Assembly: GCF_030013205.1 (NCBI RefSeq)
Contig: NZ_CP122648.1
From: Escherichia coli
GTDB lineage: Bacteria; Pseudomonadota; Gammaproteobacteria; Enterobacterales; Enterobacteriaceae
Strand: one strand, 5' to 3'
Length of the DNA: 64,000 bases
The notes beneath the pieces are model-generated. The model did no database searches, was not told where the DNA came from, and saw only the letters and a list, made by a program, of their open reading frames with translations. A program made the translations under genes and the position numbers. Every line of letters begins with the position of its first letter. Positions within the stretch are counted from its first letter, which is position 1. Shown here in pieces: positions 9,681 to 56,856 of the stretch.

Positions 9681-11021
<1,341 letters not shown>

Positions 11022-11069: not shown

Positions 11070-12077
11070 CTACCCCAATAATTCTTCCTTCACATCCATC
11101 ACCAGCTCAAACGAATGCAGGCGCGCCTGGTGATCGAAAATCTGCCCGTTAACCATAATCTCATCGGCGTCGGTTTCGCGCAGGATCGACTGCAAGCCGT
11201 GACGCACTTTCGCTTTATCACCCACCAGCGACATACTCAGCGCCTGCTGCACGCCATACTGCTCGGACGGTGACCAGAACTGATCCATATTTTGAATCGG
11301 CGGCGGCAGTTGCCCGGTTTCGCCACGGCGCAGCTTCACAAAGGCTTGCTGCATTGAGGTAAAGAGAAATTCAGCGTCGCGGTTGCTGTCGGCGGCGATA
11401 ATATTGATGCACACCATCGCATACGGTTTTTCCAGCCGTGCCGACGGTTTGAAGTTGCTGCGATAAAGATGCAGCGCCTGGAACAACATATCCGGCGCGA
11501 AGTGTGAGGCAAACGCAAACGGCAGACCAAGCTGCGCCGCCAATTGCGCGCTGTAAAGGCTGGAGCCTAACAACCACACGGGGATTTTCTCGCCATAGCC
11601 TGGTACCGGGCGCACATGCGGATTGGGATCGCGGGCGTCAAACCAGTCCACCAGCTCCGCGACATCGCGGGGAAAATTATCAATATCGCCGCTCATATGA
11701 CGACGTAGAGCCATCATGGTTCGCTGGTCACTACCCGGAGCACGACCCAGCCCCAAATCGATTCGCCCCGGATAGAGCGTATTAAGCGTGCCGAACTGTT
11801 CGGCGATCACCAATGGTGAGTGATTAGGCAACATCACGCCGCCAGACCCCAGATGCAGCGTAGTGGTATTCGCCGCCAGATAGCCAATCAAAACTGATGT
11901 TGCAGCACTGGCAATGCCGGTCATATTGTGGTGTTCCGCCAGCCAGTAGCGATGATAGCCGCGCTTTTCAGCCAGACGGGCGAGGTCGAGAGAGTGGGAG
12001 AACGCTTCTCGCGCTGAAGAACCTTCGGGAATGGGGGCCAGATCGAGTAGCGAAAACGCAATGGTTTTATCAGTCAT
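11070..12077 (-). CDS. yhbW: luciferase-like monooxygenase family protein (335 aa)
   Basis: ORF track translation. Confidence 0.9.
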
Positions 12078-12157
12078 AACAGCTCACTTTGTTACCGATT
12101 AATCTTTAATACTGCATTAAAGAGTAGTTAAAGTTGTTAACAAAGTGAGCTATTTAC

Positions 12158-13036
12158 TTACGCTTGCAGCTCCAGCCCGGCCAGCCGACGCCAGTAGCCG
12201 TTACAATCGCTGTTTGCCGTCAACGGCAGTGGCGCAGCGCCATTTTCATTGGCGCGGAAGGCGTCGAGTATCGCGAAAGTGTCAGTACCCTGCGGTGACA
12301 GGCGGACCACATCAACCAGCCCCTGCATGGATGCCAGCTCGTTACCGAGGTTGTAAACGTAGCCGCTCATGGTCTGAATGCCGTTGAGTACAAACACTTG
12401 TTGGTTTTCCTGCGACAGAACGTTGCGCCCGTTCGGATACTTAATGCAGCAGGTTTCGCACTCATCTTTCGGGCGGTCTTCCGAACGCGCGGTAAAGCAG
12501 CGGGCGGAGTAGGCCAGCGGCAGATGACCGTAGCTCAAGACTTCCACTTCAAACTGGTTGCGAATGCCCAGCTCATCGCACTGATTAAGCAGATTCACCA
12601 GCCAGTCGCGGGATAGCTCCACCGGCATACACCAGCGCATCATGCCCTGTTTGAGCAATATTTTCAGTGTCACCGCGTTGTAGCAGTTCAGCGCGTGCCC
12701 GGCGACGAACGGCAGTTTGCGTTCAGCGCACATATTCACCACGCCGAGATCGCTGGCTTCAATCAGAAACTCACCGTTCTCAACATAGCGTTTCAGTTCG
12801 CCCAGTTCGGAGGATGCCTGCACCAGCGCCAGCGTGGAGAGCACAATCTGCTTACCACTTCCGGCGAGTGATTTTGCCATCTCCAGCCAGTCGCCAACTT
12901 TGGTTGCCCGGCGCTTGCTGCATACCGCTTCACCAAGATAAATCACGTCGGCGCTGCTGGCGGCGGCCTGCTGATAAAATTCTTCCAGCGTCTCTTTTGG
13001 CCAGTACCACAGCACTGGCCCTAAGGAATATTTCAT
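12158..13036 (-). CDS. ubiV: U32-family peptidase-like protein, O2-independent ubiquinone biosynthesis (292 aa)
   Basis: ORF track 12158..13054; likely start at MKYSLGPVLWYW. Confidence 0.85.
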   Translation of the reverse strand: MKYSLGPVLWYWPKETLEEFYQQAAASSADVIYLGEAVCSKRRATKVGDWLEMAKSLAGSGKQIVLSTLALVQASSELGELKRYVENGEFLIEASDLGVVNMCAERKLPFVAGHALNCYNAVTLKILLKQGMMRWCMPVELSRDWLVNLLNQCDELGIRNQFEVEVLSYGHLPLAYSARCFTARSEDRPKDECETCCIKYPNGRNVLSQENQQVFVLNGIQTMSGYVYNLGNELASMQGLVDVVRLSPQGTDTFAILDAFRANENGAAPLPLTANSDCNGYWRRLAGLELQA

Positions 13037-13044
13037 TGCTTTTC

Positions 13045-14040
13045 TCACTGCCATTTACGGTGATACGCGCCAAGGGTGGTCTGCGTGCCTTCGGACATCG
13101 ACCCGAGCGTCTCCATCCACGCGCTTTGCGGTATGAAGTTTTGCGGATCGGCCTTACAACGGTCGATAGCCTGACGCCAGACTTTCGCCACCTGGCTGAC
13201 ATACGCCGGGCTACGCTGGCGGCCTTCAATTTTCACCGAAGCAATATTCGCTGCCATTAACTCCGGCAGCAGTTCCAGGGTATTGAGACTGGTGGGTTCT
13301 TCCAGCGCGTGATAGCGCTCGCCGTCCACCAGATAACGCCCTTTACACAGCGTCGGATAACCTGCGTTTTCGCCATCCTGATAACGGTCGATCAGCACTT
13401 CGTTCAGGCGGGATTCCAGCCCCTGCGGCGTTTGTTGCCAGCGCACGAAACGGGCCGGAGAACACGCACCCACAGTGTTGGGCGACTCACCCGTCAGATA
13501 CGACGACAGATAGCAACGCCCTTCCGACATAATGCACAGGCTGCCGAAAGCAAACACTTCCAGCGGGACAGGTGTGACCCGAGCCAGTTGTTTCACCTGA
13601 TGAATCGACAACACGCGCGGCAGCACCACGCGTGCAACGTCAAAATGGCGATGATAAAAGTTAATCGCCTCTTCATTGGTCGCCGAAGCCTGCACCGATA
13701 CGTGACGTTCAATATGCGGGTAACGCTCGGCGGCGTACTCCAGCATGGCGAGGTCGGCGAGGATCAGCGCGTCGGCACCCAGCTGCGCCGCCATATCCAC
13801 GGCGCGCTGCCAACGGGCGTAACCGTCCGGATGCGCAAAAGTGTTAATCGCGATGTGAAGTTTGCGGCGATGTTGATGGACAAAACTCACCGCTTCCTGC
13901 AATTTTTTCTCGGTAAAGTTAAGGCCGGCGAAGTGACGGGCATTAGTATCATCTTTTAGCCCGATATAAACAGCATCTGCGCCGTTTTCGATGGCCGCCT
14001 TAAGCGCCGGGAGATTTCCGGCAGGGCAGAGCAGCTCCAT
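13045..14040 (-). CDS. ubiU: U32-family protein, O2-independent ubiquinone biosynthesis (331 aa)
   Basis: ORF track 13045..14067; likely start at MELLCPAGNL. Confidence 0.85.
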   Translation of the reverse strand: MELLCPAGNLPALKAAIENGADAVYIGLKDDTNARHFAGLNFTEKKLQEAVSFVHQHRRKLHIAINTFAHPDGYARWQRAVDMAAQLGADALILADLAMLEYAAERYPHIERHVSVQASATNEEAINFYHRHFDVARVVLPRVLSIHQVKQLARVTPVPLEVFAFGSLCIMSEGRCYLSSYLTGESPNTVGACSPARFVRWQQTPQGLESRLNEVLIDRYQDGENAGYPTLCKGRYLVDGERYHALEEPTSLNTLELLPELMAANIASVKIEGRQRSPAYVSQVAKVWRQAIDRCKADPQNFIPQSAWMETLGSMSEGTQTTLGAYHRKWQ

Positions 14041-55419: not shown

Positions 55420-56730
55420 ATGTTTGATTCGACTTTAAATCCGTTATGGCAGCGTTACATCCTCGCCGTTCAGGAGGAAGTAAAACCGGCGCTGGGATGT
55501 ACTGAACCGATTTCACTGGCGCTGGCGGCGGCGGTTGCTGCGGCAGAACTGGAAGGTCCGGTTGAACGTGTAGAAGCCTGGGTTTCGCCAAATCTGATGA
55601 AGAACGGTCTGGGCGTCACCGTTCCCGGCACGGGAATGGTGGGGCTGCCAATTGCGGCGGCGCTGGGAGCGTTAGGTGGAAATGCTAACGCCGGGCTGGA
55701 AGTGCTGAAAGACGCAACTGCGCAGGCAATTTCCGATGCCAAAGCACTGCTGGCGGCGGGGAAAGTCTCAGTTAAGATCCAGGAACCTTGCGATGAAATC
55801 CTCTTCTCACGCGCCAAAGTCTGGAACGGTGAGAAGTGGGCGTGTGTCACCATCGTCGGCGGGCATACCAACATTGTGCATATTGAGACGCACAATGGTG
55901 TGGTGTTTACCCAGCAGGCGTGTGTGACAGAGGGCGAGCAAGAGTCGCCGCTGACGGTGCTTTCCAGAACGACGCTGGCTGAGATCCTGAAGTTTGTCAA
56001 TGAAGTGCCGTTTGCGGCGATCCGCTTTATTCTCGATTCCGCGAAGTTAAATTGCGCGTTATCGCAGGAAGGTTTGAGCGGTAACTGGGGGCTGCATATT
56101 GGCGCGACGCTGGAGAAACAGTGCGCGCGCGGCTTGCTGGCGAAAGATCTCTCTTCATCCATTGTGATTCGTACCAGCGCGGCATCCGATGCGCGTATGG
56201 GCGGCGCTACGCTTCCGGCGATGAGTAACTCCGGCTCGGGTAACCAGGGGATCACTGCAACAATGCCTGTGGTGGTGGTAGCAGAACACTTCGGGGCCGA
56301 TGATGAACGGCTGGCGCGTGCGCTGATGCTTTCGCATTTGAGCGCGATTTACATCCATAACCAGTTACCGCGTTTGTCTGCGCTGTGTGCCGCAACGACC
56401 GCAGCAATGGGGGCCGCCGCCGGGATGGCATGGCTGGTGGATGGGCGTTATGAAACCATCTCGATGGCGATCAGCAGTATGATCGGCGATGTCAGCGGCA
56501 TGATTTGCGATGGTGCGTCGAACAGCTGCGCGATGAAGGTTTCGACCAGTGCTTCGGCTGCGTGGAAAGCGGTGTTAATGGCGCTGGATGATACCGCCGT
56601 GACCGGCAATGAAGGGATCGTGGCGCATGATGTTGAGCAGTCGATTGCCAACCTGTGTGCGTTAGCAAGCCATTCGATGCAGCAAACGGATCGGCAGATT
56701 ATCGAGATTATGGCGAGCAAGGCCAGATAA
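55420..56730 (+). CDS. cyuA: L-cysteine desulfidase (436 aa)
   Basis: ORF track; K-12 yhaM equivalent. Confidence 0.9.
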
Positions 56731-56749
56731 ACGCCAGGTTTTGGGTATC

Positions 56750-56856
<107 letters not shown>

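Follow-up and report, generated by a model that had tools for sequence, protein, structure and literature searches.

A conserved inverted repeat between ubiV and yhbW of Escherichia coli: a predicted stress-activator promoter and a possible fold-back element in read-through RNA

In a 64,000-nucleotide stretch of Escherichia coli DNA (assembly GCF_030013205.1, contig NZ_CP122648.1; the whole stretch is hereafter the window), the 80-nt gap between ubiV and yhbW is nearly filled by an inverted repeat, with one arm on the ubiV side (distal arm) and the other at the yhbW start (proximal arm). Comparative analyses indicate that the distal arm is probably an asymmetric box for a monomeric activator (MarA, SoxS, Rob, or RamA) in a class II yhbW promoter that lacks a −35 element. 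They also suggest, with less assurance, that the repeat folds back over the yhbW ribosome-binding site in RNA entering from ubiUV. For the promoter and the fold-back taken together we estimate a probability of roughly 0.45.

The two flanking transcription units appear to have opposite oxygen logic. The ubiUV genes form an Fnr-activated operon expressed from microaerobiosis to anaerobiosis (PMC10470549), and YhbW is a member of the luciferase-like, O2-using flavin monooxygenase family (Pfam Bac_luciferase; literature). At the DNA level, a monomer of MarA, SoxS, Rob, or RamA would bind the distal arm 19 bp upstream of a weak −10 hexamer, CAGTAT; transcription would then start in the “loop” of the repeat, leaving a predicted 5′ untranslated region (UTR) of about 25 nt before the ATG in E. 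coli, with the other arm as Shine-Dalgarno (SD) and start region. Such an own-promoter yhbW mRNA would lack the 5′ arm and keep its ribosome site open. Because no terminator intervenes, RNA reading through from ubiUV would bear both arms and could form a 17-bp stem burying the SD up to the base before the AUG. Since the own transcript would start within the loop, the hairpin would be impossible there and could form only in ubiUV read-through RNA. We infer from this layout both that ubiUV transcripts enter yhbW and that their translation is blocked there: an O2-requiring monooxygenase would not be translated from an anaerobic read-through message, and the stem may also protect the 3′ side of the ubiUV RNA.

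A near-perfect inverted repeat fills the ubiV-yhbW gap

The arms contain perfect 14-nt copies: 12081-12094 reads agctcactttgtta, and 12138-12151 is its reverse complement without a mismatch. With a single T/G position included, the arms are complementary over 17 nt (12078-12094 / 12138-12154); this position becomes a G·U pair in yhbW-sense RNA. The 43-nt spacer between the arms has 12 G+C of 43 (~28%). When perfect inverted repeats were required to have arms of 14 nt or more and a loop of 3-60 nt, three loci qualified in the window and none in 60 block shuffles of it, the other two loci being a repetitive extragenic palindromic (REP) pair forming a bacterial interspersed mosaic element (BIME) and a short-loop hairpin. 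The ubiV-yhbW repeat is more than a chance feature. No second copy of the arm motif occurred within the window at up to 2 mismatches. In a local blastn comparison of the window with itself, the whole 77-bp unit behaved as an imperfect palindrome (75% self-match to the opposite strand), and the loop contains a smaller inner palindrome: an 11-nt repeat at 12100-12110 / 12116-12126 that overlaps the −10 region and whose core, TTTAAT-N5-ATTAAA, is kept in most species examined and altered in Salmonella, Cronobacter, Buttiauxella, and others.

The minus strand carries ubiU, ubiV, and yhbW in that order, all co-directional. Its RNA across the repeat (yhbW sense) was predicted to fold at −30.6 kcal/mol (z = −4.1), with a slightly weaker fold for the antisense strand. 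An earlier note on this DNA had named these genes, this strand, and this repeat geometry and had proposed folding of the minus-strand transcript as a check; on genes, strand, and geometry it holds up, the genes agreeing with RefSeq annotation and Pfam. Coordinates are given in Table 1.

TABLE 1 Features of the ubiV-yhbW gap in window coordinates (CDS, coding sequence; ORF, open reading frame; ERIC/IRU, enterobacterial repetitive intergenic consensus/intergenic repeat unit)
Feature	Position	Strand	Remarks
yhbW start codon	12075..12077	-	CDS 11070-12077; RefSeq annotation, Pfam Bac_luciferase
Proximal (3′) arm	12078..12094	-	Contains SD-like GTGAG (12083-12087); ends one base before ATG
Inner palindrome TAATCTTTAAT / ATTAAAGAGTA in loop	12100..12126		Repeat search; inner hairpin of fold
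Predicted yhbW transcription start	12100..12103	-	MG1655 about 3,303,422-3,303,425; from −10 position and K. pneumoniae fragment limits
Predicted −10 hexamer CAGTAT	12109..12114	-	19 bp downstream of predicted marbox
Predicted 20-bp Mar/Sox/Rob/RamA box ATAGCTCACTTTGTTAACAA	12134..12153	-	Forward orientation; core 15-mer 12136-12150
Distal (5′, ubiV-side) arm	12138..12154	-	Complementarity; conserved in 17 further enterobacterial sequences
ERIC/IRU insertion site	12151..12152		125-bp element in some E. coli strains and E. albertii; directly at outer edge of distal arm
ubiV stop codon	12158..12160	-	ORF 12158-13054; RefSeq annotation, Pfam
Conserved block 1, distal arm			(A/G)GCTC(A/G)C(T/A)TTGTTAAC
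Conserved block 2, central			Contains TGCAnTAT
Conserved block 3, proximal arm			TAACAAAGTGAGC, then ATG 4-5 nt later

The distal arm resembles an activator box at class II spacing

A position weight matrix (PWM) for the Mar/Sox/Rob/RamA box (marbox) was built from 32 published MarA chromatin immunoprecipitation sequencing (ChIP-seq) sites (PMC5684230). The predicted box in the distal arm matches 11 of the 14 specified positions of AYnGCACnnWnnRYYAAAYn, a moderate match and not a strong one; with a PWM score of 8.6 bits it ranks 51 of 127,972 window positions, is the best match in 11990-12300, and is oriented in the direction of yhbW transcription. Spacing to a putative −10 is nearly constant: from the start of the core 15-mer to a CAnTAT/C hexamer the distance is 36 bp in 15 of 18 species, 35 in 2, and 25 in Tenebrionibacter, and the offset in a K. 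pneumoniae fragment described below is also 36. As a class II control, micF with its annotated start site gave an offset of 35 and a gap of 18 bp between box and −10. Despite this fixed spacing, the 12 nt between distal arm and hexamer are unconserved in sequence, and the stretch from hexamer to proximal arm ranges from 14 to 88 nt. A fixed distance from distal arm to hexamer combined with a free one from hexamer to proximal arm is how a promoter behaves and is unexpected for the loop of a hairpin. Within the hexamer, the A at −11 is invariant among the species, and the T at −7 is replaced only in Buttiauxella and Klebsiella sp. BIGb0407, both of which have C. A generic sigma-70 consensus scan returned nothing at the E. 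coli repeat region, as would be expected if the promoter depends on an activator and lacks a −35.

Published work places yhbW in the MarA/SoxS/Rob network of E. coli and in the RamA regulon of K. pneumoniae, where a fragment with the yhbW promoter is shifted by purified RamA and its transcription raised 6.9-fold in vitro (PMC4310594); YhbW was also the most induced protein under vanillin stress (77-fold; PMC6561319). The 261-bp K. pneumoniae fragment used for the electrophoretic mobility shift and in vitro transcription assays was rebuilt here from the published primers and 24 metagenome contigs, and it is the strongest single piece of evidence for the promoter reading. It starts just 41 nt before the distal arm, and its best marbox match is the distal arm itself, with the same 15-mer and the same 8.6 bits; downstream come a CATTAT hexamer, a leader insertion, and the proximal arm, followed by 80 nt of yhbW. 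With 41 nt before the arm, a RamA-dependent start upstream of the distal arm is impossible, which would place the start inside the loop. From promoter geometry and the fragment limits, the yhbW start site very probably falls within the “loop”.

That placement bears on another explanation, in which yhbW transcripts begin upstream of the distal arm and the repeat is an element of their 5′ UTR: a translational switch, a thermosensor, or a structure opened by a protein or small RNA. An SD sequestered by structure, as in riboregulators, and the fold z-score of −4.1 speak for it. The 41 nt before the arm in the RamA fragment, however, are too short for a marbox-dependent promoter starting earlier; nothing is conserved upstream of the distal arm, where ERIC, REP, or coding sequence adjoins; Rfam gave no match; and the loop tolerates 75-nt insertions. 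We consider such a 5′ UTR element very unlikely.

Three other candidates were set aside. The MarA ChIP-seq site “(yhbV)” of enterotoxigenic E. coli (ETEC) H10407, which is bound by MarA in vitro (PMC5684230) and has an exact match, GCACAATCTGCTTAC, at 12841-12855 (+) inside ubiV, was rejected as the yhbW promoter because it maps mid-ubiV on the other strand. The conserved block TTTAATGCAGTATTAAA was rejected as a marbox in either orientation, because it reaches no more than 10 of 14 positions, matches poorly in its second half, and has unconserved flanks. TATTAA was rejected as the −10: no species has a T at its last position, which differs among them, and it is CAnTAT that gives class II spacing.

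The predicted yhbW promoter shares with the class II marbox promoters (micF, fumC, sodA, nfo, and inaA) an asymmetric forward 20-bp box overlapping the −35 position, a distance of 18-19 bp from box to −10 (micF 18, yhbW 19), no recognisable −35, and a gene in a published regulon. Its box differs in having GCTC for GCAC, in scoring below the MarA ChIP median, and in being absent from MarA ChIP-seq; among class II marboxes it is alone in being the exact complement of its own gene's ribosome-binding region. The 18-19 bp rule for box to −10 reportedly goes back to Martin et al. 1999, and the yhbW promoter half was probably already defined by Martin & Rosner 2002. In kind, the predicted promoter is nothing unusual: a class II marbox promoter in front of a gene already assigned to the regulon.

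The repeat is conserved across enterobacterial genera

Of 5426 complete E. coli genomes, 5424 carry the repeat, each at one locus, and its arms are retained in no fewer than 16 other enterobacterial genera. The yhbW loci compared came from one scan of a genome collection, from contigs with diverged YhbW proteins, and from metagenome contigs with the K. pneumoniae primer site. The same three conserved blocks (Table 1) were found in E. coli, E. albertii, Citrobacter, Superficieibacter, Salmonella, Enterobacter, Cronobacter, Franconibacter, Atlantibacter, Entomohabitans, Buttiauxella, Pluralibacter, Mangrovibacter, and K. pneumoniae, with weaker forms in Klebsiella sp. BIGb0407 and Tenebrionibacter. 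The earlier note had counted missing conservation of the arms in related species as one outcome that would refute its proposal; they are conserved across these genera.

What varies is the distance between the arms, with loops of 43-117 nt and an arm-to-arm distance of 57 to about 131 bp. The distal arm itself hardly differs between species, and conservation breaks off at its outer edge, beyond which lie the ubiV stop codon, ERIC sequence (some E. coli and E. albertii), or REP-like sequence (Salmonella).

The proximal arm has a wider distribution. Its GTGAG lies five to six bases before the ATG, and the stem pairs up to position −1. In Providencia and Brenneria its ACAAAGTGAG is still kept, Erwinia having ACAAGTGAG, and no distal arm could be recognised in the yhbW upstream regions of these three genera. 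Retention of the proximal arm where the distal one is missing implies that it has a function of its own, most simply as the ribosome-binding region.

These distributions also bear on the suggestion that the repeat is purely a DNA element of two protein sites, either inverted marboxes for two monomers or half-sites of a looping or dimeric regulator. In its favour, the repeat is perfect as DNA in E. coli, and the proximal arm read backwards scores as a marbox at 4.2 bits in E. coli and 5.9 in K. pneumoniae. Across species, however, that score is unconserved, running from 5.7 down to −10.9 bits, which makes a two-marbox or dimer-operator model unlikely; a loop varying over 43-117 nt is incompatible with a fixed geometry, and several species have DNA mismatches that are G·U pairs in the sense RNA. 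We regard two protein sites as highly improbable. A palindromic dimer operator as such was rejected on the loop length and because the second arm diverges where the first does not. The protein-binding operator raised in the earlier note therefore survives in one respect, as one arm resembles a monomer activator box, and fails in the other, in that the arms are not dimer half-sites (arm-to-arm distance of 57 to about 131 bp, second arm unconserved as a marbox). Its further suggestion, that the element has to do with controlling yhbW separately from the anaerobic ubiUV genes, is upheld.

Predicted pairing of the arms in read-through RNA

In 15 of 18 species the arms can still pair at 13-17 of 17 positions, although the loops run from 43 to 117 nt, and in the minimum-energy fold of the read-through RNA they are paired in 13 of 15 species, even across loops of 90-117 nt. 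In nine of the 15 species (E. coli and eight others), the mean unpaired probability from SD to AUG was 0.10-0.22 in read-through RNA versus 0.40-0.50 in own-promoter RNA. Substitutions in the stem are mostly G·U-compatible on the sense strand and would be A-C mismatches if read in the antisense RNA or in DNA: the distal arm has A to G in five lineages, and the proximal arm has A to G and C to T in several, including K. pneumoniae. Full compensatory changes from A-U to G-C occur at stem pairs 4 and 9, one of these positions in Mangrovibacter and the other in Enterobacter sp. BIGb0383/Buttiauxella, Cronobacter, and Franconibacter. Within the distal arm, the positions left free (n) by the marbox consensus are as conserved as the specified ones, and the conserved departure from that consensus, GCTC and not GCAC, concerns the very base that would pair with the A of the SD. 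A slide control was strongly favourable (84% paired versus 33-49%), which only restates the complementarity of the arms.

A terminator scan of 11800-12500 called nothing terminator-like in the ubiV-yhbW gap; after the stem comes GUUAUGAC, with no U tract. The RNA evidence is overall moderate at best, and we put a fold-back function of the repeat at somewhat less than even odds. More tentative still is the proposal that one 14- to 17-nt sequence is read twice: in DNA as the activator box through which oxidative or xenobiotic stress switches on yhbW, and in anaerobic read-through RNA as an anti-SD arm.

Evidence against the combined reading and the rivals it favours

Several observations weigh against the combination of promoter and fold-back. 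On the promoter side, the box score of 8.6 bits lies below the training-site median of 13.2, and the −10 is weak, its frame having been picked from conservation and not from data. MarA ChIP-seq in E. coli (ETEC) did not include the yhbW promoter (PMC5684230), the sole nearby MarA peak being the site at 12841-12855, ~770 bp upstream of yhbW and on the strand opposite ubiV/yhbW; a four-factor Salmonella ChIP-seq does not list yhbW either. The supplements of SMRT-Cappable-seq, Kim 2012, Middlemiss 2023, and Adams 2021 gave no yhbW, ubiV, or matching coordinates. The authors of the ETEC study expected boxes favouring SoxS or Rob to be missed (PMC5684230). On the RNA side, the drop in accessibility is weak or absent in five species, including Buttiauxella, Pluralibacter, Mangrovibacter, and Klebsiella sp. 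BIGb0407 (the last two lacking the predicted difference), and the difference is reversed in Franconibacter. Conservation of the proximal arm does not need a hairpin, as it is kept in genera without a recognisable distal arm. Covariation in an arms-only alignment of 16 distinct arm pairs did not exceed its shuffle control (paired cells 84.2% versus 83.5% in shuffles; covariation score reached by 103 of 500 shuffles), so the pairing could reflect two separately conserved sequences.

This last result leads to a serious rival, which we nevertheless rate as unlikely: that the repeat has no RNA function and is an old palindrome whose arms are held separately, one as activator box and one as ribosome-binding region, with the hairpin as a by-product. 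Besides covariation within the shuffle range, it would account for the proximal arm kept in Providencia, Brenneria, and Erwinia without a distal partner, for a distal arm nearly invariant as a protein site would be, and for a 77-bp unit that is as a whole a 75% self-complementary palindrome. It fits less well with the equal conservation of the marbox-free positions and a GCTC departure that pairs with the SD, with stem substitutions chiefly G·U-compatible on the sense strand, and with the full divergence of neighbouring loop sequence over the same evolutionary distances.

As another serious rival, the hairpin might serve the 3′ end of the ubiUV mRNA, as an exonuclease barrier, an RNase III or RNase E site, or a weak terminator, with any effect on yhbW secondary. 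A long stable stem (−30.6 kcal/mol) does stand right after the ubiV stop codon, where no other terminator is present and where ERIC and REP hairpin elements are tolerated. Yet no U tract follows the stem, and its 3′ arm reaches the yhbW start codon, so that any transcript ending there would carry the yhbW ribosome-binding site. The searchable part of the E. coli Term-seq supplements has no 3′ end at the locus, and the fixed spacing from arm to hexamer would go unexplained. A primary role at the ubiUV 3′ end seems improbable to us. The by-product, ubiUV 3′-stabiliser or processing, and fold-back readings are not mutually exclusive.

Comparison with known systems

The closest precedent for the fold-back comes from IS10/Tn10 and IS50, where transcripts reading in from outside are inhibited in this manner (Davis, Simons & Kleckner 1985, Cell 43:379, as cited in PMC2965389). 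In those elements, as in our proposal for yhbW, the segment that can pair with the ribosome-binding site reportedly sits shortly before the start of the element's own transcript, and only entering transcripts form the SD-masking hairpin. At yhbW the SD lies within the 3′ arm, whose last base is at −1, and promoter geometry together with the fragment limits would place the start in the loop; ubiUV lies on the same strand, with no terminator-like site between. The two differ in that yhbW is a chromosomal housekeeping or stress gene behind a co-directional operon and not a transposase shielded from random external promoters, that its 5′ arm doubles as a predicted activator site, and that its fold-back effect is a proposal from sequence. 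In the work of Davis et al. 1985, outside read-through transcripts of IS10 and IS50 are said to mask the transposase ribosome site, and promoter-initiated transcripts are said to be translatable.

Like ERIC/IRU and REP/BIME elements, the yhbW repeat is an imperfect palindrome of similar size in a short gap between co-directional genes and would be part of read-through RNA. In contrast to them, it is single-copy, shares no sequence with the adjoining ERIC or with the REP pair of the window, keeps to a single orthologous locus from genus to genus, and includes a predicted promoter and a ribosome-binding site. Membership in a repeat family or among miniature inverted-repeat transposable elements was rejected on the basis of one locus per genome and no other copy in the window; a second “place” reported by a sensitive genome search is most likely the repeat's own reverse-strand self-match, because the 77 bp are a 75% imperfect palindrome.

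With terminators, the repeat shares a stable stem-loop directly after a stop codon, and it differs from them in its loop of 43-117 nt, its AT-rich stem, and its lack of a U tract. A Rho-independent terminator or attenuator was rejected for want of a U tract and of any hit in the scan of 11800-12500. Against Rfam 15, the repeat region of the window gave a sole match, mir-1285, at 27 bits against a gathering score of 56, which was rejected as chance; nine orthologous loci gave nothing meaningful. The earlier note had also offered a processing or attenuation element. A hairpin is possible in ubiUV read-through RNA, where it would block translation and not attenuate transcription; attenuation itself is contradicted by the lack of a terminator-like U tract and of an Rfam match and by an own transcript that probably starts in the loop. 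We found no mention of the hairpin in the searchable literature, and a full-text match to the arm sequence occurred only inside a ubiV knockout primer.

Lineage-specific sequences around the repeat

Among 30 evenly sampled E. coli genomes, 9 showed the ERIC-type 476-bp span; neither the window strain nor K-12 has the element. Its ERIC/IRU core reads GTGAATCCCCAGGAGCTTACATAAGTAAGTGACTGGGGTGA, and its insertion keeps the first marbox positions (ATA to ACA). ERIC-like sequence also adjoins the distal arm, on this same side, in E. albertii. In Salmonella, REP-like palindromes (GCCGGGTGGCGGCAGACATGCCTTATCTGATC... / GCCTGATAAGCGTAGCGCCATCAGGC) fill the space between ubiV stop and distal arm, and the ubiV-yhbW spacer is 182 nt.

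A conserved leader insertion of ~75 nt, absent from the window, lies between the −10 block and the proximal arm in K. pneumoniae, Cronobacter, Franconibacter, Atlantibacter, Entomohabitans, and two “Enterobacter sp.” sequences. Its consensus fold has a closing stem (ACAGC/GCUGU), a stem UUUCYGG/CYGGAAG that bears a variable hairpin, and a nearly invariant 20-nt stretch, AAGACCUUCAAUCUGAUGAC, that is unpaired. The insertion also holds a tiny ORF, ATG-ACN-NNG-CTG-TAA, whose end is inside the proximal arm, and it had no Rfam match when the orthologous loci were scanned. Mangrovibacter has a different leader insertion, with a hairpin GGGCAGATG-N7-CATCTGCCC and a run of seven T 12 nt further on; by its sequence, it may be a genus-specific leader attenuator.

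Brenneria and Erwinia, in which no distal arm is recognisable, have G+C-rich hairpins right after the ubiV stop, 100-200 nt upstream of yhbW; the one in Brenneria is ATGGGCAG-N10-CTGCCCAT followed by TTATTTTTCT. These may be conventional terminators that insulate instead. They were not called by a terminator scan limited to loops of 8 nt, and there was no generic sigma-70 call either.

Neighbouring genes and other repeats in the window

Over the 351 bases compared, the repeat region is 100% identical to E. coli CFSAN018748 and 96.9% identical to K-12. RefSeq gives ubiV as 879 nt, corresponding to 12158-13036 in the window, whereas the ORF itself spans 12158-13054. An IS110-family transposase ORF (326 amino acids, 9932-10912, plus strand; DEDD_Tnp_IS110 and Transposase_20) lies between mtr and the 3′ end of yhbW; since the mtr-yhbW gap is only 117 bp in K-12, an insertion sequence has entered there in the window strain. 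The 39-nt homology arm of LL715, the reverse primer of a published ΔubiV knockout, maps to 12118-12156 and includes the whole distal arm. A ΔubiV deletion made with it should keep the distal arm, with the resistance cassette or scar directly adjoining.

The other two perfect repeats of the window are an inverted REP pair (BIME) at 56745-56855, with 14-nt arms at 56774-56787 / 56821-56834, which follows an ORF ending at 56730 and is ordinary, and an 18-bp perfect hairpin with a 4-nt loop at 39177-39216 (CTTCCTGATTCCTTTTGT-AGAA-ACAAAAGGAATCAGGAAG), with no obvious U tract after it.

Implications

yhbW is a strongly induced, functionally unknown target of Mar/Sox/Rob/RamA, and should the RNA role prove not to be real, a precise in silico placement of its stress promoter remains. 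The outcome of transcriptional versus translational yhbW fusions depends on whether the distal arm is included. Silencing an O2-dependent YhbW on an anaerobic message would make sense. If the fold-back is true, the repeat would be a chromosomal, conserved counterpart of transposon fold-back inhibition, one that insulates two genes of opposite oxygen logic from each other and needs no terminator to do so. Enteric bacteria would then uncouple such neighbours inside an 80-bp spacer, and the distal arm would offer a clean natural case of one sequence under both DNA-binding and RNA-pairing constraint.

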